Virus record (IMG/VR): IMGVR_UViG_3300008952_000057
Coordinates: 1 to 56,738 of that record
Direction: 5' to 3' (one strand)
DNA from: a virus
Lineage: Duplodnaviria; Caudoviricetes
DNA: 56,738 nucleotides
Shown: in pieces, positions 945 to 56,738 of the stretch
Layout: every line of letters begins with the position of its first letter
Numbering within the stretch: position 1 is the first letter of the stretch
Position numbers and translations under genes: made by a program
The notes under the pieces: model-generated
Databases searched by the model: none
Told to the model about the DNA's origin: nothing
What the model saw: the letters and a program-made list of their open reading frames with translations, nothing else

Positions 945-956
945 ATACTAGAACAC

Positions 957-3545: not shown

Positions 3546-3681
3546 GTTTTACCACCACGTTTTCACCCATTTTTATTTTAGCGTTCATACCAGAATCTCT
3601 TTGGTATCTAGTTCCTTGATTAGGTGTTAATATATGATTAATACTGTTTAAAAGTTCAAAAACTTTAGCCATTCCAGCCAT
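3538..3681 (-). CDS. 47-aa hypothetical protein
   Basis: MAGMAKVFELLNSINH...VVVKLG fills the gap between tail genes and overlaps the TTG start of the fibre gene. Confidence 0.6.
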   Translation of the reverse strand: MAGMAKVFELLNSINHILTPNQGTRYQRDSGMNAKIKMGENVVVKLG

Positions 3682-3685
3682 GAGA

Positions 3686-4237: not shown

Positions 4238-4275
4238 ATATCTCATTCCTGATTGGAGTATATAAAGATTTTTTC

Positions 4276-6591: not shown

Positions 6592-7433
6592 GTTGTTGCA
6601 CTTCCAGCATTTTGCCAATCAGACCATTCACCCTTGAGATAATCAGAACCTTTTGCTGCAACTCTTACACTGTATGTTTTATCAGCAATTATACCATCTG
6701 AAGAACCTAGATTGAAACTCACATTACCAGATATTGAAGAATCAGTCGAATTATACTTTTTCCATGGACTTCTTGAGCCTCTTCCTCCTATGTAGTTAGA
6801 GTATTGTATATAGTAATTAACAATGTTATTTGAACCACCTTTATCTACTGGTAAACTAATGGTTAATGGTATGGTTGTTCCACTAACAGTGCCAATAGAG
6901 AATGATGGTTCACTTGGAATATCTTCATCCAAAGAGGTTATTGTATCTCCTACAAGGAAACTAATTGTACAAACTGCTGTAGCTGGAGCGCTGGAATCTA
7001 TAACTATTGATATATTATTAACAAATCCGTAAAATGTTAAATCATCATCTCCATCTTCACTGTATTTTATCTGTAATTTGTAATGGTCATCTATACTTTT
7101 TCCTTGCATATCTTGTTTTAAAAAATCTATTTGATCTCTCACAGTATAATTTGCATTAGCGACGACATCAGAAGCACCTTGACTATATGTGGTTGGAGAA
7201 CTTGCAGATTCAGGCTTAATTACAAAACTGTATGATATAGCAGTGGTGTTTCCTTCAACCTTGACAAGAATATTTTCCGTATCACTTTCTTCTGGTAATG
7301 GCATAGGCGATATAGGTGTTCTCAAATCTATGTTGAGGTTTGTGAAGTTTCTCATAACAAACGTATGTTGCTCGTTAGTTGTGGCAGCATCTTGTTCTTG
7401 CGTTTCTAATAATGCAAGTCTTACACTAACCAA
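6588..7433 (-). CDS. Distal tail (Dit)-like protein with C-terminal FN3 domain
   Basis: Directly follows the tape measure. C-terminal P.D.GGS..I..Y.IQY...YSVRVAA...GEWS matches the FN3 pattern. Confidence 0.55.
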   Translation of the reverse strand: MVSVRLALLETQEQDAATTNEQHTFVMRNFTNLNIDLRTPISPMPLPEESDTENILVKVEGNTTAISYSFVIKPESASSPTTYSQGASDVVANANYTVRDQIDFLKQDMQGKSIDDHYKLQIKYSEDGDDDLTFYGFVNNISIVIDSSAPATAVCTISFLVGDTITSLDEDIPSEPSFSIGTVSGTTIPLTISLPVDKGGSNNIVNYYIQYSNYIGGRGSRSPWKKYNSTDSSISGNVSFNLGSSDGIIADKTYSVRVAAKGSDYLKGEWSDWQNAGSATT

Positions 7434-15499: not shown

Positions 15500-18229
15500 C
15501 TAATTAGTTTTTGGTTTTCTTTTAACTGATCTAGGCATATATTTGTTTCCACGCATCTGATTATTTAATTTATTGTTGGTTATTTGAGCAGAATTACCAC
15601 TTCCTTGTGCGAAAGTTGAACCATCACCTACGTTATGTCGAATTAAACCTCCAATTGACCCTGTACCTTCTTCTCCCTTCTGTCTTGCATCTCCATTATG
15701 TGGTAAACCTTGTTCTATAGGTACTCCAAACTCCTCGTCATCCTCATCAGATTCGGTTTTCTTTGGTTGAGGTAATCCACTTCCTATCCATGTATCTTGA
15801 CTAGCCTCTTGAGTATACATCCTATGTGCATCTCCCTGTGAGTTTGAATGGTCTCTATTTTTCTTTTTTCCTGTTGTTTCTTGTTTAATACCTAATGGTT
15901 CTAAAAGAAGTCTTTCTAATGTTTTTGGCATTTCATCTATTATCTTATCTCCTGTACTCTGTGGTCTCGCTTTGTCTGTTTTTTCATATGGATGGTCTTT
16001 TGAATATTGTTCTTCTATTTTTCTTTTAATCCTGCTTAATTTATCTTTAATATCTCCCAATGATGATGTTTTATGTTCTAATTTTTTTCTTTTTTTATCT
16101 GCTATTATTTTATCCAAAGCGTCTTCGTCAGGTAGTTTTTTTGCCTCTCTCCTTGAAAGAGTACCCATTCTTTTCTGCCAAGGGTCTTTCTGTCTACTTA
16201 GTTTTCTTGCAGTTTGAAATTCTGCTAGAGTCATACCATCAGGTAACTTACTTTCTGCTAATATAGCACTATTAGCTGAATAACCTTCCCCCCTTGGTTT
16301 AGGTTTAGTTGGGTTCTTCTGGAATGGACTACTTCTTTTTCTCTTGATTATATCATCCAGAGATTTGATTTTCTTTTTTCCTTTCTTTCCACTTAATACT
16401 GATGAAAGTTCCAATGCATCGAATTTTGGTTTTGGTTTTTTATTCCTTGCATTTATTTGGGCTATTAATTTATCTAAATCAGCTTCTGTTGGTAATATCC
16501 TTTTCTCAGACTGATAAGATCTTGGATTTTTCAATCTTTTTTTAGCTCTTTCTGCTTGAACTTCTTTAAGTGTTTTACCTTCATCGGATGCTCTTCCTTC
16601 AGCTCCTACAGGTGAATGCGATGATGGTTTTCTAACAAATTTTAATGCATTATCTATAATTGCTTTCTTCTCTTCATCATATAAAACATCTTTTTTACCT
16701 CTTTTTCTTTTACCCATCTGTGATAATAATTTACCTAATGCGTTAGTCTTCTTCTTTTCTTTTTTAGGTTTATCTTCTTCTGGTTCTTCTACTTTATGTC
16801 CTCTTTTAGGAAGATAAAATTCTGCACCATGTCTACCCTTTTTCGCCTCTTCTTCCTTTTTTCTTTTTTTATCTTCTATTATTTCTTTTAAGGCGTTAAA
16901 GTGAATAGGTTTGTCTATATGTGTTTGATATTTGTTTTCTTTATTTGGGGTTTCTGGACGAGTTTTTTTTTTACTTAGCATCGTTTTTATTTCATCTGCA
17001 ATAAACTGTGATTTCAATTTGTCTGAAGACTTGATTGCATTAGCTTCAGATTCATATAAATCAGACATTCTGGTCTCTTTCTTCTGTCCATGATGTATAT
17101 TCTGTGGTTTATGCTTACCGTCAATAATTAACTGACTTTCTACTTGTTGAATTGTTTTTTTATTTTTCTTTTCAACCTCTTCCTTCTCAGTTGAAACTCT
17201 TGGACTGTCAGGCATTTGTGAAAAGTTAGTTGATGTATCAGTTCCATATGGTGAATCTTTTGTAATACCATGTTCTGATAAAGGTTTATTACAAGTTGGA
17301 CATATCATATTTTGCTCTTCTTTTGATAAGAACATATCAACTGTATTTATGTATTTTTGTGCATCTGATTTTTCTAATTTTTGTTGAATAGCTCCACACC
17401 ATCCTTCTGGATTATCTTTATCTTTGTTATTATTAACACATTGTTGGAAACTACCACTTCCACCTTTACCGTCTGGTATAGGCTTTGTAATGTTTTCTCC
17501 TTTCTCTACACCTTCTGCTTGTTCTTCATCGGCAGTAGGGTTGTTTGCTGCAAGTGATTCATCTTGGTTTCTATGGCTAATAGATTCTTCATCTCTACTT
17601 ACTCCTTTTTCCTGTCCATTTGAACCGTTATTCTTTTCTATAAAACAACCTACACTGTTACATCTAATAACAAGTTTGTCATCTCTCTTCTCAGAGTTTG
17701 TAAAACTTTTTGCAACTTGGTTGTAGTCTGTGATAACTGCTAGTGGCACTGCTGGTTCCTTACAAACAGCTACCTCATAATGTTCTAACTTTGATAATGC
17801 ATATGCTATTGAACCGTCTTTCATTCTCATTGGTTCTCTGTCAGCTTTGGTTGCTCCACCAAATGATAATCCCTTATATTCACCAGTTTTAATTTTACTC
17901 CATATCTCATTATCCAATTCATAGTCCTTATGAATCATTCCAGTGATTTTTATTGCTGGGTATATATCACCATCTGGACTCTCGTAATTAGCTTTTGCAA
18001 AGTTGATACCTTTACCTACTATCCTATTGGAGTGTGTATCACTGATTGGTGCTCCTCTAGCCATCCAAACAGGTAAAACTTTGTATAATTCGTCGACAAT
18101 TGTAACTTCTCCCTGCTTATCCTTGACTTGGACTGTTAAATAGCCCTCAAAGAACCGTTGATCTGAGTCAACTGGTTCCAAGCTCTTAGTAATAAGTTGG
18201 GAGAACTGTAATATTGATTCTTCATCCAT
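15500..18229 (-). CDS. HK97-type prohead protease with ~700-aa low-complexity extension
   Basis: FEGY...DKQGE...H...GLSFGG...EVAVC..PA motifs in the first ~190 aa. Start MDEES is 23 nt from the TATA at 18253-18258. Confidence 0.85.
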   Translation of the reverse strand: MDEESILQFSQLITKSLEPVDSDQRFFEGYLTVQVKDKQGEVTIVDELYKVLPVWMARGAPISDTHSNRIVGKGINFAKANYESPDGDIYPAIKITGMIHKDYELDNEIWSKIKTGEYKGLSFGGATKADREPMRMKDGSIAYALSKLEHYEVAVCKEPAVPLAVITDYNQVAKSFTNSEKRDDKLVIRCNSVGCFIEKNNGSNGQEKGVSRDEESISHRNQDESLAANNPTADEEQAEGVEKGENITKPIPDGKGGSGSFQQCVNNNKDKDNPEGWCGAIQQKLEKSDAQKYINTVDMFLSKEEQNMICPTCNKPLSEHGITKDSPYGTDTSTNFSQMPDSPRVSTEKEEVEKKNKKTIQQVESQLIIDGKHKPQNIHHGQKKETRMSDLYESEANAIKSSDKLKSQFIADEIKTMLSKKKTRPETPNKENKYQTHIDKPIHFNALKEIIEDKKRKKEEEAKKGRHGAEFYLPKRGHKVEEPEEDKPKKEKKKTNALGKLLSQMGKRKRGKKDVLYDEEKKAIIDNALKFVRKPSSHSPVGAEGRASDEGKTLKEVQAERAKKRLKNPRSYQSEKRILPTEADLDKLIAQINARNKKPKPKFDALELSSVLSGKKGKKKIKSLDDIIKRKRSSPFQKNPTKPKPRGEGYSANSAILAESKLPDGMTLAEFQTARKLSRQKDPWQKRMGTLSRREAKKLPDEDALDKIIADKKRKKLEHKTSSLGDIKDKLSRIKRKIEEQYSKDHPYEKTDKARPQSTGDKIIDEMPKTLERLLLEPLGIKQETTGKKKNRDHSNSQGDAHRMYTQEASQDTWIGSGLPQPKKTESDEDDEEFGVPIEQGLPHNGDARQKGEEGTGSIGGLIRHNVGDGSTFAQGSGNSAQITNNKLNNQMRGNKYMPRSVKRKPKTN

Positions 18230-18308
18230 GAATGAGTGTCTACCTATTAATATATAAATATTCATGAAAAAGGGGAAAGGGGTGGGTTATTCGCCCAAAA
18301 TATACCTC

Positions 18309-27568: not shown

Positions 27569-28693
27569 GTGAGTAAAATGAACCGAGAAGATATTAAAGA
27601 ACAACTAACTAACAAGGCACGAGACCTTGCACAAAACTCTGTTACTAAGAAGAATTACGTAGAGATTGTAAGAAACGATGAGTTCCTAGACTTACTAGAT
27701 AAACTTATGAAACAATCACCTAACGTAGTAAAGAAGGCAACCAAACCAACAATGGCAAAGTACCAACCTGTCGAAGAACTAACTACTAAGATACCTTTCG
27801 CTCCTATTGCGTTTGACCAATACGAACCTGTTAGATTAGGTGAGTACGTTGAGACCAAGAGTGAGTTGCAAGATATATTAGACATTGCACAGAACAAAGA
27901 GATACCTAACATTCTAATCGAGGCTGGAAAAGGTACAGGTAAAACAACTCTTGCTTATGAACTAGCTACTCTATTGAAAGAAACTTATGGTAAATGTAAT
28001 ATCATATCAATCTCATGTAGTAGTGGTTTAAGAGAGGGAGACCTACGAGGTAGATACCAACTAAGTGTTGATGAGAATGGTAAAGAGATATCAATCTTCG
28101 TTGCTGGTATTTTAATAGAGGCAATTCAATCTGCATTAAGAGATGGTGTTGCAGTACTATATCTAGATGAGTTGAATGCATTAGAACCAGAACTACAGAA
28201 GATGTTGAACTCATTACTTGATGCACGTAGATGTTTGTCAGCTAATGGTCATATGTTTAGAGTAGGAGATGCAAGACTAATTGTTGTGGCAACACAAAAC
28301 CCATCTACTTATTCAGGTGTCCAAGAATTGAACGAGGATTTGAGAAGTAGATTTGTTGGAGACATCTGGGATTACCCATCACAAGAACATCTAGAACAGA
28401 TTGTTGATTGGACTGGAGTACCAGACGATGCTAAACAAGGAATCACGCAACTAGCAACAGACACATACAACTATAGAACCAAGGGTGACGTAGAGTATGT
28501 CTTGACAGTGAGAGACCTCAAAGACTTCTGTGAAGTGTACCGTATATTTAATGACCCAAAACAAAATGCAGATGCATTAACTGTGTTGCGTAAGACATTA
28601 GATAAGACAGTACTAATCAGGTACAGTGATTCAACAGAACGTGAACTCATACAACAATCAATCAACGACACGTTTGATTGGTCAGAGAACTAG
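27569..28693 (+). CDS. MoxR/CbbQ/NirQ-type (CobS-like) AAA+ ATPase
   Basis: Walker A AGKGTGKT, Walker B LYLDELN, ATQNP..Y.G..ELN.DLRSRF. Confidence 0.9.
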   Translation: MSKMNREDIKEQLTNKARDLAQNSVTKKNYVEIVRNDEFLDLLDKLMKQSPNVVKKATKPTMAKYQPVEELTTKIPFAPIAFDQYEPVRLGEYVETKSELQDILDIAQNKEIPNILIEAGKGTGKTTLAYELATLLKETYGKCNIISISCSSGLREGDLRGRYQLSVDENGKEISIFVAGILIEAIQSALRDGVAVLYLDELNALEPELQKMLNSLLDARRCLSANGHMFRVGDARLIVVATQNPSTYSGVQELNEDLRSRFVGDIWDYPSQEHLEQIVDWTGVPDDAKQGITQLATDTYNYRTKGDVEYVLTVRDLKDFCEVYRIFNDPKQNADALTVLRKTLDKTVLIRYSDSTERELIQQSINDTFDWSEN

Positions 28694-28706
28694 GAGGTAC
28701 TAAGAA

Positions 28707-30932
28707 ATGAAATGGATATACAATATATCTAAAGGAGAATGGGAGGAGGCAACACCTAATCCCTTCTTCGTTCCTTTTTCTGAATACTTCACAGACAAAG
28801 ATTACTACGAGAAGAGAAAACATATTGTTGAGAAGATAACTGGTAAGAAGATAGCAATCACATATACTAGAGAACCAAATTCTATACATAACAATGGTCA
28901 AGGAGAGTTTGCAACTGAGAAGGCTAAGATTGAATACGTTATCAATCTAACTGACCCACCTCTTAAAGAAGTTGATATGAAATCAGCTTACTACCACGAG
29001 CAAGGACATGCATTGTGGGAGAGTTTTGTATCTAATGGTATGACAATCTGTAGAGACTATGGTAATAGTTACGTAGTAAAGAGATGGAAAGAGTTAGGTA
29101 TGTTAGCTGTCGTTGATGGTAAAGAACAGATAGTATTCAAGGACAAGAAAGGTAGAGAGATTTTGCCTGACCCAATACTATTCGAGAGGTTCAATAGATT
29201 ACTTGAATCACATAAAGGATTTGCACGTAGTACATACATGACAGTCTTTAATGTGTTAGAAGACCAGAGGATTGAATCATTAACTAGCAGAGTATGGTTG
29301 TCAACTAAGGGAATGTTTAAAGAGTTAAGGCAGAACCTTGCCTCTACTTGTCAAACATTTGAATCACCAGTTGATAAACTACTTGCAGTTAGATTCACTC
29401 ATCCATCAATGTTTGACGTAGAACATGTGTACCATGATGCAATAAAGAATGTAGAATACACAGATAAGTTTGGAGCAATCATTGAGGTTCACAAACTACG
29501 TAAAGACATTGACGAGTGGATTGAAAAACAACTGAAAGAAAACATGAAGAAAGTAATGGACAACTATAATGCAATAGCCAATGGTGGATTTGGAAAGAAC
29601 GAACAAGAGGAATTGCAAAAACTAAAACAAGAGATAAAACAAGCACCAGACAAAGCAGTCGTAGAGGTGGAGTCAAGGATTAATAAGTTCAAAGCAATAG
29701 AGAAACTTCAAGGTATGGACAAGAAACAAATGGAACAGGCAAAGAAACGTGAGCAACAACTAACTAGAAGTGTGAACAAGATGAAGAGAGAAATGTCTAC
29801 CACCAATAAAGAATGGGAGACCAAAAGAAAAAGAGTGGAAGAATTAGAGAGGAAAGAAACAGAACATGGAAGTGCAAGAGAAAGAATAAGATCAGAACTA
29901 AATGGTTCAGCTAACACTATGATTGAGAAAGGTAATAGTGAATTTGCTAAGAATCCAACTGGTAATCATGAGGCTTGTTCACATGAGAATAAAGCAGAAC
30001 TGGAAGAGGTAATGGAAAAACTAAAAGCTGGTGGACTAACTAATGAGAAGAGCAAGGCAACAGCACGTAGAGAGATAAGCAACATACTATCAAAACTACA
30101 AGAACTAGAAGAACCAGAGAAACCAGCACATATCCTAGTAGATAGTAATTACCAGAACAGAGAAGTGGGTGAGATAACCGACCTTAATGCAACAGCTACA
30201 AGATATCTAAAGAAAACATTCGACAAGATTGTTGCAAGTAGAGTTACAAAAGTAACAGAGAATGGCATGGAAGTAGATACTGAATCATACATAGCAAGAA
30301 AACAACGAGGTTATGGTGAGTTTATGATAGGTGAAGAACCTCAACGTGGTCTCAAAGTAATAGTATCTATAGATGGTTCAGGTTCTATGAGATATGATGA
30401 CCGTATAAATATCTGTAGAAGAATGATTGCAACAATGTTCAAATCAATAGAAGGATTACCACACGTACAATTGATAGCAAATGTATGGTCAGCAGGTAGA
30501 GATGGAGATGTATGTATAACACCTATCAGAAAACTATCCGAGTGTAGACATATTGGTATAGACAGTCACTACGTATACACACCAACACATGAAGCACTAA
30601 GATATGCAAGACAAGAGATAACAAACAGTGGTAATGGTAAGAAACTATTCATCATGTTAACTGATGGACATCCACAATACTTTGACCCTGTTAGTAGGGC
30701 TGCAATAGATGATAAAATCCTAGTGAGAATGGCAAGAAAAGAGTTTACCAAACTGAATAGATTATGCAAGAACTCATTTGCATTAGGTATATCAACTTCT
30801 GGTCTAGGACGAAGACAATTGACAGAAGTATTCAAGAAGAACATAGTATATGTCAAAAACGCACAACAAGCTGAAGGTATAGTGTTGAAGAAATTCAGAC
30901 AACAAGTAATAGATACAATGAAGAGAAGATAG
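28707..30932 (+). CDS. vWA-domain protein with N-terminal HEXXH domain (CobT/NorD-like AAA+ partner)
   Basis: HEQGH and FNVLEDQRIE at the N-terminus, a central coiled coil, then MIDAS DGSGS...T...TDG. Confidence 0.85.
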   Translation: MKWIYNISKGEWEEATPNPFFVPFSEYFTDKDYYEKRKHIVEKITGKKIAITYTREPNSIHNNGQGEFATEKAKIEYVINLTDPPLKEVDMKSAYYHEQGHALWESFVSNGMTICRDYGNSYVVKRWKELGMLAVVDGKEQIVFKDKKGREILPDPILFERFNRLLESHKGFARSTYMTVFNVLEDQRIESLTSRVWLSTKGMFKELRQNLASTCQTFESPVDKLLAVRFTHPSMFDVEHVYHDAIKNVEYTDKFGAIIEVHKLRKDIDEWIEKQLKENMKKVMDNYNAIANGGFGKNEQEELQKLKQEIKQAPDKAVVEVESRINKFKAIEKLQGMDKKQMEQAKKREQQLTRSVNKMKREMSTTNKEWETKRKRVEELERKETEHGSARERIRSELNGSANTMIEKGNSEFAKNPTGNHEACSHENKAELEEVMEKLKAGGLTNEKSKATARREISNILSKLQELEEPEKPAHILVDSNYQNREVGEITDLNATATRYLKKTFDKIVASRVTKVTENGMEVDTESYIARKQRGYGEFMIGEEPQRGLKVIVSIDGSGSMRYDDRINICRRMIATMFKSIEGLPHVQLIANVWSAGRDGDVCITPIRKLSECRHIGIDSHYVYTPTHEALRYARQEITNSGNGKKLFIMLTDGHPQYFDPVSRAAIDDKILVRMARKEFTKLNRLCKNSFALGISTSGLGRRQLTEVFKKNIVYVKNAQQAEGIVLKKFRQQVIDTMKRR

Positions 30933-31666: not shown

Positions 31667-31883
31667 CTCCCCTTCTTTTTGTATCGTGTGTGGTAAACCA
31701 CCAGACGAATACAAACTAATCAAGCATCACGTATCGTATTACCCAGAGATTATAGCTCATGTCCACTACGAATGTCATAAAAAAATCCATGACTCTACGT
31801 GGTCACCGTTCATCCAATACAAACGTGGTGAATCCAAAAAGTTCTACGACGAGAAGGGAGACAACAAACCTCTTGTCGAGTAA
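31647..31883 (+). CDS. Small HNH-like protein
   Basis: CIVCG...HHVSY...ECHKKIH. Confidence 0.6.
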   Translation: MNRTLLNSPSFCIVCGKPPDEYKLIKHHVSYYPEIIAHVHYECHKKIHDSTWSPFIQYKRGESKKFYDEKGDNKPLVE

Positions 31884-31936
31884 TTCCTCTCTTAATTGTA
31901 CACCAATTAAAAGACCAAAAAAGACATCTACTCCAA

Positions 31937-32622
31937 TGACGTACGAGCTAGCTCAAAAATTAACTGGAGGTTTAACCACTACGACGAAGATGCCATGTAA
32001 ATCATATAGTATTCCTTCTTCTATGTGTCTTATAGGTGGTCAATTAAGAAAAGTAAAAGGTTCTGTTTGTGAGCATTGTTATACGTATAGATATAGAAGA
32101 TTTCCAAATGTTATAGAAAAACAACAGGAACGTATAGCAACACTAATCCAGCCACGATGGGTAGAAGCAATGGCATATCTAATAAAAAGTGAGAGTAATA
32201 GATTTTTTAGATGGCATGATTCTGGAGATTTACAAGGTATTTGGCATTTGAAAAAGATAGTAGAAGTAGCAAGACTAACACCAGAAGTAAACCACTGGTT
32301 GCCTACATTAGAGGTACAAATTGTTGAAGATTATCTAAAAAGAGGTCATGAAATACCTTTTAATTTATGTATTAGATTTTCAGCACCAATGGTAAGAAAT
32401 ATCATTCATGTTCAACATCCATTAGGAAGTGTGAAGTTAAGAAAAATGAGATGTACTGGTAGTGCTGTTCTTAAGATGTCTAAGAAACAAAAAGAAATTG
32501 TAAAACTGGATTACCTAGATAGGTCAAACATTTGTCCTGCATTCAAAAATGATGGTAAATGTGGTGATTGTAGAAAATGTTGGGATAACAACGAGGAGAT
32601 GATTCATTATGTCTACCATTAA
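31937..32622 (+). CDS. GP88-like Cys-rich (radical-SAM-like) protein
   Basis: KMPCKSYSIP...C..G...GSVCEHCY, FFRWHDSGD, HWLPT and CPA...CGDCRKCW. Start probably MTYELA. Confidence 0.75.
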
Positions 32623-32972: not shown

Positions 32973-33185
32973 ATGAATTTACAAGAAAGATATAATGAAA
33001 TGAAGAGAGAACAACACACAATATGTAATGCAGTTGGATGTAATAAATTAGTAGAGCATAAATTAAAATGTCTTATAACTTACCCTAATAAAAAAGAGGG
33101 TATACATACTGTATATTTATGCCATTCATGTTTTCTAAACCAGAAGCTAATTGATTATAAAAAAGAGGAGGTAGATAAACAATGA
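32973..33185 (+). CDS. Zinc-finger micro-protein
   Basis: CNAVGC...LCHSC. Confidence 0.6.
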   Translation: MNLQERYNEMKREQHTICNAVGCNKLVEHKLKCLITYPNKKEGIHTVYLCHSCFLNQKLIDYKKEEVDKQ

Positions 33186-33817
33186 CCAAATGGAGAAACC
33201 AGTTTGGTGCTGGTGACACTAACGACCCACAAAAAAGTGTATGGGGAAAGAAACTATTAGGTGGTGTAGCTGGTCTAAAATTCACAGCAAAACAAATAGT
33301 AGATGAGTTTCCTAGAGGATGGACAACATACGTAGAACCTTTCGCTGGAATGGCAAGAACCTGTAAGGAAATGGGTTTTGATATGTGTACCTTTTCTACT
33401 AATACTATTGTGTTGAATGATTTGTCACCACACTCTAACGAGTACTGTAAGAAGGTATTTCCTATTGCAATAGTAGAGAATATGTCATTTGAAGATACAA
33501 TTAACAAATATGATAGTGATAAGACATTCTTCTTTATTGACCCACCTTGGAGACATAATATATACACATACAATGACTTCTTTAGGATGGATAGAAAGGT
33601 ATATGATTACTACGAGAAGTTGTTAGAGATGACCGAGACAATGAAGGGTGATTGGATGATTACTTCCAATGCTGATGAGCATGAGTGTAGAAAAATACTG
33701 ACCAAAAGTAAATGGAATACAAAATTGATTAGTAGTGGTGGTAAACACATATTTGGTAAACCAGCCAAAACACTATTGTGCAGTAATATATTTGGATTGA
33801 AGGAGAAATCGAAATGA
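33182..33817 (+). CDS. DNA adenine methyltransferase (D12/Dam-like class)
   Basis: YVEPFAG (SAM-binding motif I), VLNDL, FFFIDPPW (catalytic motif IV). Confidence 0.85.
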   Translation: MTKWRNQFGAGDTNDPQKSVWGKKLLGGVAGLKFTAKQIVDEFPRGWTTYVEPFAGMARTCKEMGFDMCTFSTNTIVLNDLSPHSNEYCKKVFPIAIVENMSFEDTINKYDSDKTFFFIDPPWRHNIYTYNDFFRMDRKVYDYYEKLLEMTETMKGDWMITSNADEHECRKILTKSKWNTKLISSGGKHIFGKPAKTLLCSNIFGLKEKSK

Positions 33818-47152: not shown

Positions 47153-47401
47153 ATGGCTAGGAGAAGAATAATTAACGCAAAGAACACCACAATAGCAGTT
47201 GATTGGAATGATAAAGAAAGATTTAGGAGACATGCAGAGTATGTTAAAAAAACAAAGTCAGGTCAACGTTCAGAAAGTGATTTAGTTTTATTTAAAAAGA
47301 TGGTTGATTTCTATGAAGAACATCATAAGTTACCAGAGAACGCTGAGCCAAAAACAACATACCCAACTAAGGTTTCTCAAGAACATGACCAGCAAGATTA
47401 A
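47153..47401 (+). CDS. RHH-like DNA-binding protein (putative)
   Basis: TTIAV....KERF pattern, with a TTTATATA box upstream. Confidence 0.5.
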   Translation: MARRRIINAKNTTIAVDWNDKERFRRHAEYVKKTKSGQRSESDLVLFKKMVDFYEEHHKLPENAEPKTTYPTKVSQEHDQQD

Positions 47402-47723
47402 AATCTCTGCTGACCCATTTTAATTTTATTCTATCACTCATTTTTTTCATACATTTTTCATATAATGGTATGAGATGTTCTGTTGTTATTCTCCAATCAC
47501 CGTTAATTTGGTTAACAACGAGTTTAGAATCACTGTATATTGTTATAAAATTATCCCTATGCTTGTTGTTTACGTATTGTAACGCATACTCTAACGCAAG
47601 ATATTCTAATTCATTATTAGTTAATTCACCATGTCTATGTTTCACATATGTGACACCATTTGTTTTATCTACTAAACATATTCTTGAACCTCTTGTTCCC
47701 CCATCTATGTAGATCTTTATCAC
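47367..47723 (-). CDS. Ribonuclease H, type I (archaeal-like)
   Basis: IYIDGG, TNNELEYLAL, YSDSKLVVNQING.W and WVSRDFNLA. Confidence 0.9.
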   Translation of the reverse strand: MIKIYIDGGTRGSRICLVDKTNGVTYVKHRHGELTNNELEYLALEYALQYVNNKHRDNFITIYSDSKLVVNQINGDWRITTEHLIPLYEKCMKKMSDRIKLKWVSRDFNLAGHVLEKP

Positions 47724-49530: not shown

Positions 49531-50913
49531 TTAACCGAACAATGCCTTCTTTAATCCTTTTCCTACCTCTAAAACATGCCAATCATTGCCCTTATATGCA
49601 GCCCTACAAGCTAAAACTAGGCTATCAGGATAGTCATCATGTTCATCTGACTTTATCTTCATAATCCCACTTTCCGTATACTCACGTCTTAGGTATGATA
49701 ATTGATATACCATTTTATTAATATTCTTTAGTTTAATTCTATGGTTCTCAAATAACAGTCTAAGATTCTTATACATCTCTGCCTTCTCCTGTAATGTGAA
49801 CATAACACCTCTACAAGGCATTCCCCTCTGCCTACATAAATCTAACAAACCTCCACCTAAACCAGTTTCATCTATAAAGATAGTTTCAACACCATACTTT
49901 TGTGTTAATTCACCTACTCTACCAGCAACATCAACCACATTAGATTGTGATTCTGCCTCAACTTCTTCAACAAAACATATATCATTTTCGTCCAATGATG
50001 TCACAGTATATACTGTTTCATCTCTACCTGATCTTGCAACATCCACACCAAGATAATATCGTAATCTTCCTTTTGGATTTTGGTTAGTTAATGCTTCCAT
50101 GATTAATGAGTTAGGTATTAATGCATCACCAATGTCTAGGAACTCACCTTCAACTTCTTGAACATATTCTTCTCGTGTTAACTTTTTAATCTCTTCTATA
50201 AATATAGGATCTTTTTGTACAAGTGGGTTATCAGTTGATTTAACATGAAATTCTGTCCACATACCATCAGGGTTTTTTGGTCTTGAGTCTTGACATGCTT
50301 CATAGAAATAACCATTCTTACTAAACGGAGTGGAGGTTAACCAAACTCTAGCTGATGTAGCCATACCAGAAGGTAAGAATGCTCTAAGTATATCAGTCTT
50401 AATAAAAGAACATTCGTCAGCAATAATAACGTGTGGTGAATAACCTCTAAGTCCTACACCACTTTCACCTGTTGCTCTAGTAATGATTTTAGTCTGACCA
50501 GTGTTATCCAAAAATCTAACCCATAATTCTGTTTGTGTGTTTCTTGTTACATATCCCTCAAGTAATTCATTCTTCATAACAAGGTCACGTATTCTTCCAA
50601 ACATGATACTTGCTTGGTTTTGGGTAGGTGCTGCGATTACAATAATACATTCATCTTTAACTGTCTCTAACATTAAAGGAGCAAAAAAAGCAAAATGAAT
50701 AGCTTTCACTGCTGTACTCATGGTTTTACCTACCTGTCTTCCAGACCTATAAACAATAAATCTATCTTTACAGTTTACATAATTTACATTATAATCAAAT
50801 AATTCATGGTCAAGAAAAACCTTACTGAATAATGATGCGTTACCAGCACAATCTGTCACAGTTTGTATGAAATTCTGCCTCTCCTCTAATACTTCTTTTG
50901 ATGGTCTAGCCAT
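49531..50913 (-). CDS. Terminase large subunit
   Basis: RSGRQVGKT, IIADEC, TSTP, LGVDVARSGRDETV, IDETGLG and HDDYPDSL. Start MARPS (TAATG overlap). Confidence 0.95.
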   Translation of the reverse strand: MARPSKEVLEERQNFIQTVTDCAGNASLFSKVFLDHELFDYNVNYVNCKDRFIVYRSGRQVGKTMSTAVKAIHFAFFAPLMLETVKDECIIVIAAPTQNQASIMFGRIRDLVMKNELLEGYVTRNTQTELWVRFLDNTGQTKIITRATGESGVGLRGYSPHVIIADECSFIKTDILRAFLPSGMATSARVWLTSTPFSKNGYFYEACQDSRPKNPDGMWTEFHVKSTDNPLVQKDPIFIEEIKKLTREEYVQEVEGEFLDIGDALIPNSLIMEALTNQNPKGRLRYYLGVDVARSGRDETVYTVTSLDENDICFVEEVEAESQSNVVDVAGRVGELTQKYGVETIFIDETGLGGGLLDLCRQRGMPCRGVMFTLQEKAEMYKNLRLLFENHRIKLKNINKMVYQLSYLRREYTESGIMKIKSDEHDDYPDSLVLACRAAYKGNDWHVLEVGKGLKKALFG

Positions 50914-51011
50914 TAATATTTCCACCTATCATGGCAATGACATTTACAATCTCCTTCTTTTTCATCATTACAACAATCACACCACACACAACATTTCTCT
51001 CTTTTCACCAT
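50913..51011 (-). CDS. 32-aa metallothionein-like micro-protein
   Basis: MVKREKCCVWCDCCNDEKEGDCKCHCHDRWKY, TAATG-coupled on both sides. Confidence 0.65.
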   Translation of the reverse strand: MVKREKCCVWCDCCNDEKEGDCKCHCHDRWKY

Positions 51012-51127
51012 TAGGCTGTCCTCGTATGTTTTGTTTTAATATGATTAACAACTTCTTGAGAGTTTTTAAATCCTTTCTTACCACACCAAATACAATGTCT
51101 TATTTGAATCTCGTCTTTATATATCAA
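51011..51127 (-). CDS. 38-aa C2H2 zinc-finger micro-protein
   Basis: TTG start. CIWCGKKGFKNSQEVVNHIKTKH. Confidence 0.65.
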   Translation of the reverse strand: MIYKDEIQIRHCIWCGKKGFKNSQEVVNHIKTKHTRTA

Positions 51128-51636
51128 TCTGACTTTCTCGCTTTTATTTGTTTGAAGATACTTTCTATGTCACCCTGTTTATTTAGTTTAGTTTCTTCGG
51201 TTAATACTATCTTGCTATTCAATTCATTGATTGATTTAACTATATTTAGTAGGGTGTTTATCTCAGATTTGGTGTTTCTATCAGGTATATTACCATCCAT
51301 CTTAGACTCTGTTAACGCCATCAATACATTCTCAAAGGATAATTTTGCTATCATATCTAACATGGCTTTAACATCATCAGGTTTTCTAGTATCTAAGTCA
51401 TTGATGAATTTAACAAAATCTTCTCTTATAGCACAAATAGCTCCAGCTTCGTATTTTGGACATTTACCATTTCCACCGTCATCTATTGACCTATAAATAC
51501 ATTGGTCACATAATGCTGGTAAGTTAGCAGTTTTCATATGCTTTGCAGAGTTGAATGGTGATATTGTTTTTCTTCCATCGATAACAACTTTACCTCCTCC
51601 TCCTATAGGCTTTATTTTAAATAGGTCTTCTGCCAT
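51124..51636 (-). CDS. Cys-containing helical protein, candidate terminase small subunit
   Basis: First gene of the terminase operon (TATA 23 nt upstream). CDQC...C...C followed by long helices. Confidence 0.45.
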   Translation of the reverse strand: MAEDLFKIKPIGGGGKVVIDGRKTISPFNSAKHMKTANLPALCDQCIYRSIDDGGNGKCPKYEAGAICAIREDFVKFINDLDTRKPDDVKAMLDMIAKLSFENVLMALTESKMDGNIPDRNTKSEINTLLNIVKSINELNSKIVLTEETKLNKQGDIESIFKQIKARKSD

Positions 51637-51653
51637 ATTTGTTTTAATAATTG

Positions 51654-52421
51654 TTAACTTATAAAGTTATCTTCATAACAGTTCATTGCTTTACATAAAG
51701 GCATGAATAAAACTGCAATTGGTAGCTTTAACAAGGAATAATATTCATTTTCTATAACTTTAGATTTATTTACATTTATTTTCTCTATATTATCCTTATA
51801 CATCTCTAACGCATGGTTTAACATTGGTTTCATTGTCTTACCTTTATCTCCAAAGAACATTGAGTATGTTGAATTTGCATTCCATATCTCTGTCTTCTTT
51901 GAAACTGCAGCCGAAATCCATGCACTCGTATCAATACTTTCAAAGATTCTATTACTAATGAATTTACCTTTAGCTAACCCATGGTATTTCACATGTCTAG
52001 GTAGTTTTCTTATCTGATCATCAGTCTCGTCCTTACCATGTATTTCACCTAATGCTATATAATCTCCCTTTGATGGTATTATTCTTCCTATATGTTGTAA
52101 ATAATTTTGTTGCAAGACAGGTATTGTCCAATCAATACCATCCTTTCTCTCCTTCTCATAATATGATAGTGTTTTCTCCAAGTCATATCTAACATCATAC
52201 TGTGTTGCATAATCATAGAGTTTTCTTTTCTCTCTTAGAAACTTATGATAACCATCAGCTTCTGTGTTTGTTCCAGCAACAACAAATACAGATTCAAAGT
52301 CTTTTCGGAATTTATCTATATTAGCATATGAATGCCTATATGAGAGCATGACATTTTTTACACCACATGAGATTAATGCATCTCTAGTTGCTTTATTATT
52401 TGCGTTAAAATATATCTTCAT
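51654..52421 (-). CDS. DpdA/TGT-fold (7-deazaguanine transglycosylase-like) protein
   Basis: Ordered motifs MKIYF, MLSY, QYDV, IPVLQ, YIALG, YHGLA and FESIDTSAW. Confidence 0.7.
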   Translation of the reverse strand: MKIYFNANNKATRDALISCGVKNVMLSYRHSYANIDKFRKDFESVFVVAGTNTEADGYHKFLREKRKLYDYATQYDVRYDLEKTLSYYEKERKDGIDWTIPVLQQNYLQHIGRIIPSKGDYIALGEIHGKDETDDQIRKLPRHVKYHGLAKGKFISNRIFESIDTSAWISAAVSKKTEIWNANSTYSMFFGDKGKTMKPMLNHALEMYKDNIEKINVNKSKVIENEYYSLLKLPIAVLFMPLCKAMNCYEDNFIS

Positions 52422-52651
52422 CTAAGGTCATCTTCACTGATGACCCATCTTAATCCACGTATAAATCCCCTTCTTTCATCATCAGTCATTTCTAAGAATC
52501 TTTTAGGAACTTGAAATTCATCTGGATCTGGGTTTTCATGAAGTAATTCTTCTTTCTGATAAAGTAACATATTTCTTATAGAACCCTCATCAATCAATTT
52601 TATCACTATCCTCCCCAAAACACTTTGTAGCAAACTTACAGAATCCATCAC
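52418..52651 (-). CDS. Hypothetical protein
   Basis: ORF coupled to both neighbours. True start is probably near 52597. Confidence 0.55.
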   Translation of the reverse strand: MMDSVSLLQSVLGRIVIKLIDEGSIRNMLLYQKEELLHENPDPDEFQVPKRFLEMTDDERRGFIRGLRWVISEDDLR

Positions 52652-53351
52652 ACAAAAAACATTTTGTTCTTTCTGGTAATGTTCTATCTGTTAATGATTC
52701 TTTTATTATTTTTGATTTTATGACCATATCTTGTAAAGTCTCTTCTATTGGTTGTAGTTTAAATGATAGTACTACTGGTTTATCTCTTTTCTCCTTTGAG
52801 ATAGTGTTTGATACATATATAACAGCACCATATTTTGCATCTATACCATAGCATTTTTTAAGTAAAACTCTATATCTGTTAATCTGTAGAACATGAGATT
52901 CACTAGGTTGTGATCTTGCTTTACTAAAGTAATCTATTGAACCTGTAGTTTTTTTATCTGTAATAACCCACTCAGTACCTACCTTAACTAAATCATCTAT
53001 ACTACCATATATTATGTCTAAATGTTTTGGGTCGTTTTCAGGTAGATTTTTTGCATCTTTATATGATATTGGTTCATCTGTTACATAATTATATCCTAGA
53101 AACATTTCATGATGTTTCTCATCTGCAACCATTGAAGCATTATGAATAGCCTGACCAATGTAAAGACTCTTAATATCCTCTGTATCTGTTCCTGTGTTTG
53201 GAGTTAATTTACTATACATGACATTTCTTAGACATGGTTTGATAAGGTCTGACACATGTATAACACCTAATCTCTCTGTTTTCATTGCCTCAAGTTGAGC
53301 CTTTCTAAAGTCAAAATATACTTTATTACTAATATCCTCTAATTTTATCAA
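52590..53351 (-). CDS. Cas4-like PD-(D/E)XK exonuclease
   Basis: PCLR, GQAIH, GSIDD, ITDKKT, Q...Y and C-terminal C..C...C......C (Fe-S staple pattern). Confidence 0.85.
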   Translation of the reverse strand: MIKLEDISNKVYFDFRKAQLEAMKTERLGVIHVSDLIKPCLRNVMYSKLTPNTGTDTEDIKSLYIGQAIHNASMVADEKHHEMFLGYNYVTDEPISYKDAKNLPENDPKHLDIIYGSIDDLVKVGTEWVITDKKTTGSIDYFSKARSQPSESHVLQINRYRVLLKKCYGIDAKYGAVIYVSNTISKEKRDKPVVLSFKLQPIEETLQDMVIKSKIIKESLTDRTLPERTKCFLCDGFCKFATKCFGEDSDKID

Positions 53352-53509: not shown

Positions 53510-53862
53510 TAGTAACTCTCCTCTATTATGAAATTAAAAGTTTTTGATTGTTCTGTCATTACATTGGATGAACTCTTTATCTCTACTTCGCCTTCCCAAT
53601 TACCAGCGTTTGTAACTGCTGTATCGGTAGCTGACAAAGTATATGCTATTTCACCACTTGATCTATCAGAGAATGTACATGCACCATTTATGATTAATGT
53701 ACCATCAGGTTTCCAAACTTTCCAAGTTGCACTTCCATATAATGATGTGTCAGTTAATGCTTTTGCGTTTCCATCTGCATCTAAAATATTGATATATATT
53801 GTTGCTCGTGACCCTGCTTTCACTCTATATTCAATTGCTCTTCCTATCATATTTTGACTCAT
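53509..53862 (-). CDS. BppU-like baseplate upper/adaptor protein
   Basis: KPDGT...GEIAYTLSATDT...G.WEGEVEI. Confidence 0.7.
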   Translation of the reverse strand: MSQNMIGRAIEYRVKAGSRATIYINILDADGNAKALTDTSLYGSATWKVWKPDGTLIINGACTFSDRSSGEIAYTLSATDTAVTNAGNWEGEVEIKSSSNVMTEQSKTFNFIIEESY

Positions 53863-55112
53863 CGACTAGCACCTTTAGTTGATTTTCGTCTGTTAAATAG
53901 TTTTGCTCCTCTAACTCTGTTGTATAGGCGTGAACTCTTAACCCTGTTAAATCCTCGTGTACTTCTTGTTGGTGAGATTGTATGAATCCTCTTCTTAAAG
54001 AATGACTCTACAATATTAACAGTTTCATTCACACGAATAATCCAACTTCTTTGTTTGGCTAATGCCTCTGCGATGTTTAATGTTTCTGCTATTGCTCTTA
54101 TTCTTAATCTGAATATGTAAGGAACTTCTGCCAAATTCATGGTTTCAGCTATACGTCTGATTAAAGTTCTCTGTTTTGCCAGTGTTTCTGACACATTAAC
54201 CACAGCGTTTTCAAATCTTGACATTTCTCTTGGACTTCCTGTTGTCTCACTCATACTAATGTTATCATTTCCAAATCTATTATAACCGAATGCCTTATGT
54301 GTAGCTGTTGCAATGTTTACTACGGCATTTTCAAATCTTATTATTAGACTCAATCTTGGAACTACTTCAGATATGTTCATAATCTCCATAGGTGCTGTTC
54401 TTGCAAATCCCATAGCCCTTACTATTCCTTTTCGTACTAAAGTTTGGAACACATTATCTTGGAATGCAGAATTTTGGAAGGCACTCACTGGTTCCAATAA
54501 TTGCATTACTTCATTTATAGCTCTTATTATTCCTTTTAATCTGCCATCAAAGTCAATAATATGCATGTCCTCATTTGCAAATCTAAATCTTGCTCTTAGT
54601 CTTGTAGGAAGATCAGTGACATTCAATGTTTCACCAATTAAAAAGAATCTATCCCTATATGATAACGTACCTGTGATGTTTTGAATCCTTAATGTCTCAT
54701 TAATAAATTTATTAAAACCTAATACTTTATTATGAGCATTGTCAGAATCACTATCAGTTATATTGAAAATTTCTACAATAGATTTTACAGCACCCAATGC
54801 TCTAATAATACCCTTTTTGGCTTCCTGTTGGAATACATTATCTTGGAATGCAGAGTCTTGGAAGGCACTTACAGGTTCTAACACTTGTTGTAGCTCATTG
54901 GAATGTCTAACCAATTCCATTACTTTAACATAACCATCTACATCATCTGCTGGTCTATGCTGAAATACATTTGTTTGAAAAACACTTCTTTGGAATAGGT
55001 TTCTTCTTTGTAATATATTCTCATCTTCATCTACTACAACTGTTCTTATTCCACCCTGAAATACTCCAGCTCCCTGAAATACAGTTTGCTGAAATGTGTT
55101 TTGATATGACAT
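53859..55112 (-). CDS. Repeat-rich putative virion protein
   Basis: FQ...FQ..VFQ repeats, ~20-aa R..NET.NI.E repeats and an Arg-rich C-terminus. Confidence 0.6.
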   Translation of the reverse strand: MSYQNTFQQTVFQGAGVFQGGIRTVVVDEDENILQRRNLFQRSVFQTNVFQHRPADDVDGYVKVMELVRHSNELQQVLEPVSAFQDSAFQDNVFQQEAKKGIIRALGAVKSIVEIFNITDSDSDNAHNKVLGFNKFINETLRIQNITGTLSYRDRFFLIGETLNVTDLPTRLRARFRFANEDMHIIDFDGRLKGIIRAINEVMQLLEPVSAFQNSAFQDNVFQTLVRKGIVRAMGFARTAPMEIMNISEVVPRLSLIIRFENAVVNIATATHKAFGYNRFGNDNISMSETTGSPREMSRFENAVVNVSETLAKQRTLIRRIAETMNLAEVPYIFRLRIRAIAETLNIAEALAKQRSWIIRVNETVNIVESFFKKRIHTISPTRSTRGFNRVKSSRLYNRVRGAKLFNRRKSTKGASR

Positions 55113-55113
55113 G

Positions 55114-55971
55114 TTATACTATCTCTGTCCATGCTGAACCTGACCAAATGTAATGTTTTCCAGTGTCAGTTTCCTCAAAGATTGAGTTGGCTTGCAGGTT
55201 TGGATCTGCCTTGTAAATTGTAGATATTTCGCTGGTTGTTAATAACCTATCCCATAATGATACCTCATCAAGTAAACCATGAGCAAATTTATCAGCTGCG
55301 TTTCCTCTACACATGGCTTTTAATGAATATTCAGTATCACCAGTCGATCCAGTTGTTGCTCTGTTACCTGTTCCCTGTGCAGTTCCGTTAACATAAACAG
55401 TATAATTTGCAGAACTTAATGAATAATCACATGTTACTGTAATCATATACCACGTTCCTGTTGATAATGTCTGATTATATGCCAAGTTACCATTATGCAT
55501 CCATCCACTTCCAGACTTTAACGCCAATCCTAGCGAAGTAGTAGATTGATACATGTTAATACCTTTTGTCTCTGTGCTGTCCATATTGCTAAAATATCTA
55601 TCTTCAGATGTGAATGATGTATGATTAACCCAAAAATTAATTGTCCAATCTCCTGTGCCATGTATAAAATTCCATTGTGATGTTGATGATCCTAATTCTC
55701 CATAATCATCAGATCCGTCAAACGATAACGCATTTCCTACCTTTCCTGTCTGCGAATATGTTGCACCTGATATGGTAATGTCTGCTGCACTTCCCAAACC
55801 GTCGCCTGTTGTCTGCTGGTTTGTTATGTTTCCAGACGATTCGTTGAAGTTGTAATACGCCTTTAGATTTGATGTTGAAACGCCTGTATTTGACAGTGCC
55901 TTTGTTGGAGAAAGTGCCGTCCTCTCTGCACTCGTTCCAACAATGCGTTTACTTGCTTTGTAATCTGTCAT
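55114..55971 (-). CDS. LamG-domain receptor-binding/fibre protein
   Basis: LKAYYNFNE...ALSFDGSDDY...WYMITVT...VYVNG...LDEVSLWDRLLT. Start likely MTDYK (ATGA overlap). Confidence 0.8.
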   Translation of the reverse strand: MTDYKASKRIVGTSAERTALSPTKALSNTGVSTSNLKAYYNFNESSGNITNQQTTGDGLGSAADITISGATYSQTGKVGNALSFDGSDDYGELGSSTSQWNFIHGTGDWTINFWVNHTSFTSEDRYFSNMDSTETKGINMYQSTTSLGLALKSGSGWMHNGNLAYNQTLSTGTWYMITVTCDYSLSSANYTVYVNGTAQGTGNRATTGSTGDTEYSLKAMCRGNAADKFAHGLLDEVSLWDRLLTTSEISTIYKADPNLQANSIFEETDTGKHYIWSGSAWTEIV

Positions 55972-56738
55972 TCTAACCACGTACTCCTTCCGTTTTGGAA
56001 TTTTAAGTCATTAATATATCCTACAAGTGAACCACTAACTGAATAACTATTATCATTAACTATTACAAAGTAACGTAAATTTTGAATGGTTGATGGTATA
56101 GTATATTCTTCATCTTCAACAAGCGTACCACTATGAGAACCACTTCTAATTTTTATCCTATATTTTGTTTCTGATAATCTAGTTAATTCATAGTAATGGG
56201 TTTGACTGTTTGTAAGTGCTGTTGATAATTCACTTTGACTACCTGAATTATAATCTGCACCATCGCCATAGGAAGGGTGTATGTCTCGTTCTGCCGAATT
56301 TGATGATATTTGGTGATGAAAACCAATTTTATCGACACTTGAAGACCAACTTCCAATTCCACTAGATAATCCAAAGAACGCCATCTTATGTGATGATCCA
56401 CCACCAGTAATAGTATCAGTTGTTAGTTTAAATCTAAGAACCCACTTTGAATTTGAAATTTCACCTTCACCGAAATCGTATGATGATATATCATTTGTAC
56501 TGTGCCTTCTAATATCATAATCCAATCTCGTATTAGTAGTATCGACACCAATTAATGATGTACTATCAACAAAATTATCTGAACTGAAATTAATATCTAG
56601 TTGTGCAATTCCATCTAATTTCCAATCCGTACCATCATACCACCAGTAAGAAGGCGTATCATCTGTTTGTTGGAAGATAGAATTTGTCCTTACACCTGTT
56701 AATCCATCCAAGTCACTTGTTGCTGAAAAGTCGTTTTT
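55968..56738 (-). CDS. Fibre/receptor-binding protein, 5' end outside window
   Basis: Frame stays open to 56738 (KNDFSATSDLDGLTGVRTNSIFQQTD...), followed by a lectin-like beta domain. Confidence 0.7.
   Translation of the reverse strand, partial: KNDFSATSDLDGLTGVRTNSIFQQTDDTPSYWWYDGTDWKLDGIAQLDINFSSDNFVDSTSLIGVDTTNTRLDYDIRRHSTNDISSYDFGEGEISNSKWVLRFKLTTDTITGGGSSHKMAFFGLSSGIGSWSSSVDKIGFHHQISSNSAERDIHPSYGDGADYNSGSQSELSTALTNSQTHYYELTRLSETKYRIKIRSGSHSGTLVEDEEYTIPSTIQNLRYFVIVNDNSYSVSGSLVGYINDLKFQNGRSTWLE

Follow-up and report, generated by a model that had tools for sequence, protein, structure and literature searches.

The window analyzed here is an entire virus record, IMGVR_UViG_3300008952_000057 of IMG/VR, 56,738 bases in length and 91% complete as estimated by CheckV. 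It encodes an MCM helicase, a RadA/Rad51-type recombinase, a large terminase subunit (TerL), a portal protein, a tail tube protein and a Cas4-like nuclease, and is thus assigned to an archaeal tailed virus. Our subject is a 255-residue protein of this virus that is related to DpdA and to the tRNA-guanine transglycosylases (TGTs). Aligned with these enzymes, it lacks the aspartate of the DSG motif, as do all the members of its clade that we collected, and it may have been repurposed as a non-transglycosylating, DNA-binding partner of the protein encoded next to it. The genes around it, each with the evidence for its assignment, are as follows.

51654..52421, minus strand: DpdA-like protein of predicted TGT fold, 255 aa; open reading frame (ORF) with an ATG start; AlphaFold2 (AF2), Foldseek, VIA-align and hhalign
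51124..51636, minus strand: Cys-rich/helical partner (Cys170), 170 aa; matches columns 372–475 of the phrog_887 profile, E = 3.6e-8; candidate small terminase
49531..50925, minus strand: large terminase subunit TerL; Pfam Terminase_6N, E = 3.1e-12, and Terminase_6C, E = 2.1e-8; phrog_2, E = 1.1e-47
52418..52651, minus strand: 77-aa ORF (orf77) between the Cas4-like and DpdA-like genes; ORF call
52590..53351, minus strand: Cas4-like PD-(D/E)XK nuclease, first gene of the block; phrog_1706, E = 1.7e-14

The Cas4-like, orf77, DpdA-like and Cys170 genes form a tight block, in which neighbors either overlap or are 17 nt apart. The stop of orf77 overlaps the start of the DpdA-like gene by 4 nt, and the Cys170 gene begins 17 nt downstream of the DpdA-like stop. 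The Cas4-like nuclease matches Pfam Cas_Cas4 at E = 4.1e-4, under the curated cut-off, and orf77 has no match in Pfam or PHROG. We sampled 80 IMG/VR loci of the clade to which the DpdA-like protein belongs (hereafter the window clade). The gene order Cas4–(orf77)–DpdA-like–Cys protein–TerL is kept among them, with the Cys protein present in 79, TerL in 78, Cas4 in 76 and orf77, as matched by tblastn, in 38. A preliminary description of this DNA, made from its letters, had raised the question of whether the Cas4–DpdA–terminase synteny is conserved; across these loci it is.

The translated ORF carries the motifs of DpdA-like proteins in order, namely LSY (residues 25–27), FVVAG (46–50), QYDV (74–77), IPV (100–102), YIALG (121–125), HG (147–148) and ESIDTSAW (161–168). 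Both this order and the presence of FVVAG where DSG is expected had been noted in the preliminary description, and the translation bears them out. Taken alone, the protein has no useful match in Pfam (E≤1), PHROG (E≤0.01) or the PDB sequences, and a tblastn search of 50,697 phage records with it gave no match. Its best PDB sequence match was BRO1 (E = 4.5e-4), which we regard as a chance match because the E-value fell back to 0.45 when a profile was used. The protein is not a DpdA4: the PF20314 (DUF6610) domain was found neither for it in Pfam at E≤1 nor in a six-frame search of the record, and a link is suggested by a language-model lead only (0.91).

Relatives were gathered by two routes. 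A word-indexed search returned 169 clusters (90% identity) at E≤0.001; the 120 clusters listed among the 169 contain proteins of 208–266 residues without a Pfam domain. In IMG/VR, the window clade accounts for 124 stretches. An exhaustive phmmer search over 1.84 billion representatives returned 56 proteins, and the 27 near-full-length ones were aligned with the window protein (alignment A2). Half of the sequences in A2 (14/28) match phrog_887, annotated as queuine tRNA-ribosyltransferase, with a best E-value of 2e-27, and 10/28 match phrog_7068. In an alignment of 28 sequences with 52–74% identity to the window protein, 51 columns are invariant. Two relatives that lack the DSG aspartate match phrog_887 directly (P0130, E = 5.3e-5; P0145, E = 1.5e-3), and the DpdA of Escherichia phage CAjan matches it at E = 8.2e-96.

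Profile comparisons with hhalign connect the family to enzymes of both kinds. The family profile A3 aligns with CAjan DpdA at a probability of 98% (E = 2e-13), pairing FVVAG with FLDSG and ESIDTSAW with YSCDSSSW. A wider profile, A7, was compared with a TGT profile made from the catalytic domains of six archaeal TGTs (PF01702, E≤5.2e-65) and E. coli Tgt. The alignment (probability 91.2%, E = 1e-6) spans 179 columns and pairs VFVVAGT with VMMDSGAYQ, TQYD with TFHD, and ESIDTSAW with DTFDSASY. The match of A7 to the single E. coli Tgt sequence is not significant (1.9%), with the DSG motif as the only local alignment, and profile A1 alone reaches 0.1% against the TGT profile. The closest comparison is with the DSG-bearing DpdA of a sister virus, represented by the metagenome contig L168, which BLASTP aligns over the full length (E = 2e-32), placing FVVAGTNT--------EADGY opposite FVDSGAHTALTQGKEVDFNKY. 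Judged from these alignments, the 255-residue protein probably belongs, in degenerate form, to the DpdA1 lineage of phage DNA guanine transglycosylases (phrog_887).

The AlphaFold2 model, which was built on A3, has a mean pLDDT of 95.4 and a pTM of 0.91, and displays the strand/helix alternation of a (β/α)8-type barrel. The best 50 Foldseek matches listed from the PDB are all tRNA-guanine transglycosylases, with a best E-value of 2.2e-5 and query TM-scores of 0.48–0.56. VIA-align superimposes the model on the archaeosine TGT (arcTGT) of P. horikoshii (1iq8_A) with a Z-score of 15.9 and a root-mean-square deviation (rmsd) of 3.0 Å for 226 residues, and on the DNA preQ0 insertase DpdA (7UI4) with a Z-score of 15.6 and an rmsd of 3.4 Å for 239 residues, covering model residues 1–250. 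A look-up in the ESM Atlas points in the same direction (TGT/DpdA), as a lead only. The protein is thus predicted to have the TIM-barrel fold of TGT and DpdA, as had been proposed from the motifs. The chain contains neither a Cys cluster nor a zinc subdomain. In the model, V48 ends strand 44–48, while D76, H147 and D164 lie in or just after strands 71–73, 145–148 and 160–165, and E126 is at the C-terminal end of strand 121–124.

The roles of the residues concerned are known from characterized enzymes. S. Montevideo DpdA uses Asp95 as its general acid/base, and Phe99, four residues further on (D+4), stacks on the base; the D95A substitution abolishes guanine exchange, and a role in activating the leaving guanine is proposed for Asp95 (PMC10164549). 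Equivalent catalytic residues of Zm TGT and S. Montevideo DpdA (SmDpdA) are D102 and D95 for acid/base catalysis, D280 and D256 for the nucleophile, and D156 and D130 for base recognition.

We tallied residues over 178 unique window-clade sequences out of 201 collected. V48-A49-G50 lies opposite D-S-G in all alignments, whether the partner is CAjan DpdA (FLDSG), L168 DpdA (FVDSG) or the TGTs (MMDSGAYQ). Position 48 is V in 172 sequences, T in 5 and M in 1; position 49 is A in 135, P in 33 and S in 10; G50 is invariant (178/178). Aspartate or glutamate occurs at position 48 or 49 in none of the 178. The absence of an aspartate at the DSG position is, in these alignments, a clade-wide trait, and the earlier reading of the aspartate as missing holds: in the sequence alignment of the relatives, no aspartate is at the canonical position. 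More than the aspartate is gone. At D+4, F, H or Y is found in 15/16 rows of DSG-type relatives and precedes a loop of about 8–9 residues; the window clade lacks the stacking aromatic, and the loop after it is deleted.

The losses are not accompanied by decay of the gene. All 81 ORFs inspected are intact, with lengths of 253–260 residues, and the ratio of nonsynonymous to synonymous substitution rates (dN/dS) has a median of 0.098 and a maximum of 0.29 (257 pairs with 0.05<dS<1.5). The DpdA-like gene is under purifying selection, and given the intact ORFs and the low median dN/dS the clade is not decaying. We also inferred a maximum-likelihood tree from 51 rows with the quick search of IQ-TREE, taking four known phage DpdAs as the root. 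In it, the DSG rows form a basal grade, and the rows without the aspartate, except for the long branch P0173, form one group of 34 (SH-aLRT 89). The tree requires at least two changes of state between the DSG and D-less forms.

The preliminary description had reported no preQ0 synthesis genes in the window, and wider searches agree. A six-frame Pfam search of the full record found no TGT, QueC, PTPS/QueD, GTP cyclohydrolase I, radical SAM or DUF6610 domain, FolE2 (PF02649) lying outside that search. In tblastn searches with CAjan and Hilltopfarm proteins as queries, FolE, QueD, QueE and QueC were found in 0/80 window-clade loci. Loci with DSG-type DpdA from IMG/VR have FolE in 61/80, QueE in 54/80 and QueC in 53/80, and FolE is present in 51/80 metagenome loci of the same type.

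The closest relatives with a DSG DpdA are members of the same virus lineage. The TerL of L168 is 45% identical to that of the window (E = 6e-155), and its Cas4 is also related (E = 1e-42). The gene order of L168 is Cas4, QueD, QueE-like, FolE, a 124-aa ORF, a glycosyltransferase-like protein, a cupin, DpdA, a 138-aa ORF, the Cys protein and TerL. The cassette proteins match QueD (PTPS, E = 1.1e-9), a QueE-like radical SAM protein and FolE (E = 8.7e-30), and the DpdA has a canonical DSG motif (IFVDSGAHTA) as well as YKYHGFAKG and YSIDSSSW. Locus L166 has the order DpdA(DSG)–Cys protein–TerL, and L167 contains QueE, FolE and a DSG DpdA. Since L168 has the same gene order together with the cassette and a DSG DpdA, the window clade has lost both the pathway and the catalytic aspartate, probably once.

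L168 is of interest in its own right. Its QueD, QueE and FolE cassette occupies positions 3130–6999, and QueC was not found by tblastn in the 14.8-kb locus. A glycosyltransferase-like protein (330 aa) and a cupin (99 aa) are encoded directly upstream of DpdA. The gene content hints that an archaeal virus may have 7-deazaguanine at the CDG level or decorated with a sugar.

The preliminary description had called the DpdA-like protein stand-alone. This does not hold, as the adjoining gene encodes a homolog of the C-terminal module of the long-form phage DpdAs: the Cys170 match to phrog_887 covers C-terminal columns of that 509-column profile. Cys170 has a CxxC...KCP...C motif followed by a DGNIPD helix region; its family has four invariant cysteines (C43, C46, C59 and C68) and conserves the DGxxxD-helix region. 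By tblastn, Cys170 matches the C-terminus of gp181 of Streptomyces phage GiJojo, a 501-aa protein annotated as a "dpdA-like tRNA-guanine transglycosylase" that covers the full phrog_887 profile, and in which the barrel is fused to the Cys4/helical module. In Bacteroides phage BS162P1, barrel and module are adjacent separate genes (87 and 88; tblastn), and in contig L134 the gene straight after that of a DSG DpdA encodes the module in fusion with an HNH domain. The DpdA-like protein therefore appears to be one half of a recurrent two-part unit, with the Cys module fused to the barrel, adjacent to it, or joined to HNH. The L134 protein (IMG/VR contig, positions 7881–8951) has 356 residues, with an N-terminal HNH endonuclease motif before the Cys4/helical module, and its gene precedes head and tail genes.

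GiJojo gp181 (L001, positions 2936–4441) keeps DSG and has alanine at the aligned nucleophile position (ESVASTSW). It may thus be catalytically inactive as well, and the loss of its nucleophile is, on the aligned residues, a second, independent erosion within the barrel–Cys4 unit.

Cys170 is encoded directly upstream of TerL, in the position of a small terminase, and abuts TerL in many of the 80 loci. No other small-terminase candidate was found among 16 window ORFs scanned in PHROGs. Cys170 reaches E = 0.075 against phrog_6902, "terminase small subunit", and feature look-ups in the ESM Atlas connect it to Terminase_4 clusters (0.90 and 0.86; language-model leads only). A search with the Cys170 profile returned 424 proteins, none of them named, and nothing among PDB sequences; a search for longer or fused forms gave one uninformative match. 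No convincing repeats, as possible pac sites, were seen in the stretch 50800–52700.

We propose the following history. An ancestor would have carried the 7-deazaguanine cassette (QueD, QueE and FolE, plus further genes) and, after it, a canonical DSG DpdA, the Cys4/helical protein and TerL. The window clade has lost the cassette, the acid/base aspartate, and the base-stacking aromatic with its 8–9-residue loop, and the DpdA-like protein would no longer exchange guanine for 7-deazaguanine. The barrel would persist as a non-catalytic or weakly catalytic DNA-binding, perhaps base-flipping, subunit that recognizes or handles viral DNA at packaging jointly with the Cys4/helical protein, and the retained pocket residues D76, H147 and D164 would serve binding, not turnover. 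On the basis of the losses, the conservation and the gene order, we give a rough probability of 0.45 to the protein being such a repurposed, non-transglycosylating partner of the Cys4/helical protein in a packaging module, in which it may have kept some residual enzymatic activity.

A more specific form of this proposal, which we consider doubtful, is that the small terminase consists of two pieces, of which the barrel is the one that recognizes DNA, kept after the loss of the modification pathway as a base-flipping reader to help the terminase pick viral DNA. The ancestral DpdA would then have been physically coupled to a Cys4/helical packaging protein, with 7-deazaguanine inserted as DNA was selected for packaging. 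Such a past would account for the repeated joint occurrence of barrel and Cys4 module (fused, separate or combined with HNH) across archaeal viruses, actinophages and Bacteroides phages, as well as for the recurrent erosion of one or the other catalytic aspartate.

Several observations weigh against a packaging role without catalysis. Cys170 has no significant match to small-terminase families. The fused gene of GiJojo is about 75 kb from the annotated terminase (gp61), and no small terminase is annotated in that phage. The location next to the terminase gene, which the preliminary description took as a hint of modification-linked DNA selection, is inherited from DSG-bearing, cassette-carrying ancestors such as that represented by L168, so position alone provides no argument for packaging. 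The pocket itself is well kept: D76, the aligned base-recognition aspartate opposite TFHD of the TGTs, is conserved in 175/176 residues, and H147 in 177/178. D164, the aligned nucleophile (placed by profile alignment, not by superposed coordinates), is D in 175/178 and N in 3/178, in agreement with the earlier statement that the putative nucleophile is kept. Near-invariance of these three residues would also suit a working active site, and E126 (E in 174 of 178 sequences, D in the other 4) could be a stand-in acid/base.

The same residues form the core of the case for an active DNA transglycosylase, which would insert preQ0 made by the host, or another base, and obtain its acid/base from another residue, such as E126, or from the partner protein. 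The strong purifying selection fits such an enzyme, as does the predicted placement of the kept residues, which lie at the C-terminal ends of barrel strands or immediately beyond them. There are also precedents in the literature: phage 7-11 has dADG (PMC6884629), and use of host preQ0 has been proposed for HRTV-29 (PMC8651126). The effect of D95A in S. Montevideo DpdA (PMC10164549) argues in the opposite direction, as does the joint loss of the D+4 aromatic and its loop. The aspartate loss also goes hand in hand with that of the synthesis cassette of the virus itself. Column 126 is Gly in 9/16 of the DSG-type relatives and, in the wider D-less rows, K or R in 10/16 and so not acidic. Some D-less lineages have lost D164 too, with N in P0126 and P0146 and other residues in 5 more rows. 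Use of host preQ0, which had been put forward in the preliminary description, is conceivable, but becomes less likely because the stacking aromatic and the loop have also been lost. Overall, we consider an active transglycosylase unlikely, though a serious candidate.

Retention of the nucleophile and the pocket residues, and the tight operon with a Cas4-like nuclease, could alternatively reflect a hydrolytic DNA glycosylase or a covalent DNA-trapping enzyme that removes guanine or modified guanine from DNA, such as that of the host or of a competitor. In the first half-reaction of TGTs, base release with formation of the covalent intermediate needs the nucleophile (PMC5699537, PMC10164549). 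Against this reading, activation of the leaving guanine in DpdA is proposed to depend on Asp95, and no exchange activity was left in D95A (PMC10164549); moreover, no glycosylase activity of a TGT-fold protein turned up in the parts of the literature covered. We regard this explanation as improbable. Still less probable is an accessory subunit that pairs with a catalytic TGT, such as the archaeosine TGT of the host, in order to redirect or block it. The TGT of eukaryotes is a heterodimer in which the catalytic QTRT1 pairs with QTRT2, a subunit without the active-site aspartate (PMC5699537), and the fold of the window protein is about equally near arcTGT and DpdA by the Z-scores given above. TGTs dimerize via the zinc subdomain (PMC5699537), which is absent from the 255-residue chain, and the conserved neighbor is the viral Cys4 protein and not a TGT. 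Finally, loss of both the catalytic aspartate and the cassette could have left a functionless relic of the modification pathway in decay; the intact ORFs, the low dN/dS and the 51 invariant columns make this very improbable.

Whichever function it has, the clade is informative. A large and abundant marine archaeal-virus clade of DpdA homologs has lost a residue that is essential in the bacterial enzyme and is also devoid of the synthesis genes; its conservation is nonetheless strong. DpdA has been treated as a signature of 7-deazaguanine in viral DNA (PMC10516641). Annotation of the window-clade proteins as DNA-modifying enzymes is probably wrong, because the aspartate and the synthesis genes have been lost. 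The L168 type, with DSG and a cassette, and the window type, with neither, belong to one lineage and thus provide a clean comparison. The pair should be useful for learning what role a TGT fold takes on after catalysis is lost, and whether or not insertion of 7-deazaguanine is tied to packaging.

The remainder of the record contains other features of note. An AAA_5 (MoxR-like) ATPase (E = 1.6e-17) is encoded beside a 741-aa VWA-domain protein (E = 1e-5) at 27569–30932 (plus strand), forming a MoxR–VWA pair. A GP88-family protein (PF17338, E = 2.9e-21) is located at 31759–32622 (plus strand). The 211-aa ORF at 33182–33817 (plus strand) matches D12-class N6-adenine DNA methyltransferases in their C-terminal part only (columns 153–242 of 253). 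Its product may be a methyltransferase that is short or split, and as such another route of DNA protection. On the minus strand, a 921-aa ORF at 15500–18265 has a weak prohead-protease match (Peptidase_S78) at residues 111–179 and may be a protease–capsid fusion, and a 118-aa RNase H-like protein (phrog_531, E = 1.5e-12) is found at 47367–47723. Several large ORFs with LamG/concanavalin-like signatures lie at 53859–56738 and 3–6618 (minus strand), with Laminin_G_3 in 4276–6618; their presence at both ends of the window suggests a tail-fiber module that runs across the record ends.

As to the host, GTDB species genomes contain no relative of the DpdA-like protein and none of the viral MCM. The viral RadA has a sole match, at 38% identity, in a small archaeal metagenome-assembled genome from an order with genomes of 0.4–1 Mb, and we did not accept it as a host assignment. 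The single hint is the source label "Candidatus Nitrosotenuis sp." on the 1,055-bp contig that encodes the homolog P0084, a label that does not confirm the host.

We found no description of a DpdA clade without the DSG aspartate, or of a DpdA–small-terminase module, in the portions of the literature covered, which do not extend to the supplementary lists of DpdA homologs (PMC6884629, PMC10516641). Among characterized proteins, CAjan gp35 and the DpdA of phage 9g (PHROG 887) have the TIM-barrel family and the motif order in common with the window protein. The base-binding aspartate, the His-Gly pair and the SxDxSxW nucleophile motif of CAjan-type DpdA1 all have aligned counterparts. Unlike DpdA1, the window protein has neither the DSG aspartate nor the D+4 aromatic, and its loop is deleted. 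The genomic settings differ as well, since CAjan DpdA is part of a complete preQ0 cluster and the window virus has no FolE, QueD, QueE or QueC; deletion of dpdA in CAjan abolishes dPreQ0 in the phage DNA (PMC6884629).

The fold is shared over residues 1–250 with S. Montevideo DpdA (7UI4) and the TGTs (1IQ8, 1P0E), at 10–13% identity. By profile alignment, the window protein has counterparts of Asp130, His181 and Asp256 of the bacterial enzyme, and none of Asp95 or Phe99. Bacterial DpdA has 413 residues; the 255-residue chain has no zinc subdomain, and no DpdB/ParB-like partner was seen.

Singleton DpdAs, as in Mycobacterium phage Orion and cluster B1, Salmonella phage 7-11 and HRTV-29, are likewise encoded without viral preQ0 synthesis. 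Orion encodes only DpdA and its DNA is without 7-deazaguanine, while phage 7-11, also with DpdA only, has about 50 dADG per 10^6 nt (PMC6884629). The cluster B1 mycobacteriophages encode only DpdA (PMC9584339), and for the singleton DpdA of the halovirus HRTV-29 it is the host that is proposed to supply preQ0 (PMC8651126). The sections of these papers that were covered report no loss of a catalytic aspartate, and the comparison here is one of gene content. The window clade differs in being a lineage of archaeal viruses in which the Cys4 partner is split from the barrel.

QTRT2, a TGT paralog without the active-site aspartate that is the accessory subunit of eukaryotic TGT (PMC5699537), resembles the window protein in being a TGT-fold protein that has lost an active-site aspartate and has nevertheless been retained. 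QTRT2 acts on tRNA as a heterodimer with its catalytic paralog, whereas the six-frame Pfam search for TGT found no such paralog in the window virus. The nearest parallel to the two-part unit is GiJojo gp181. There the barrel and the Cys4 module form one chain, while in the window virus they are two adjacent genes; and the erosion is at the nucleophile (Ala) with DSG kept, while in the window protein it is at DSG with the nucleophile kept.

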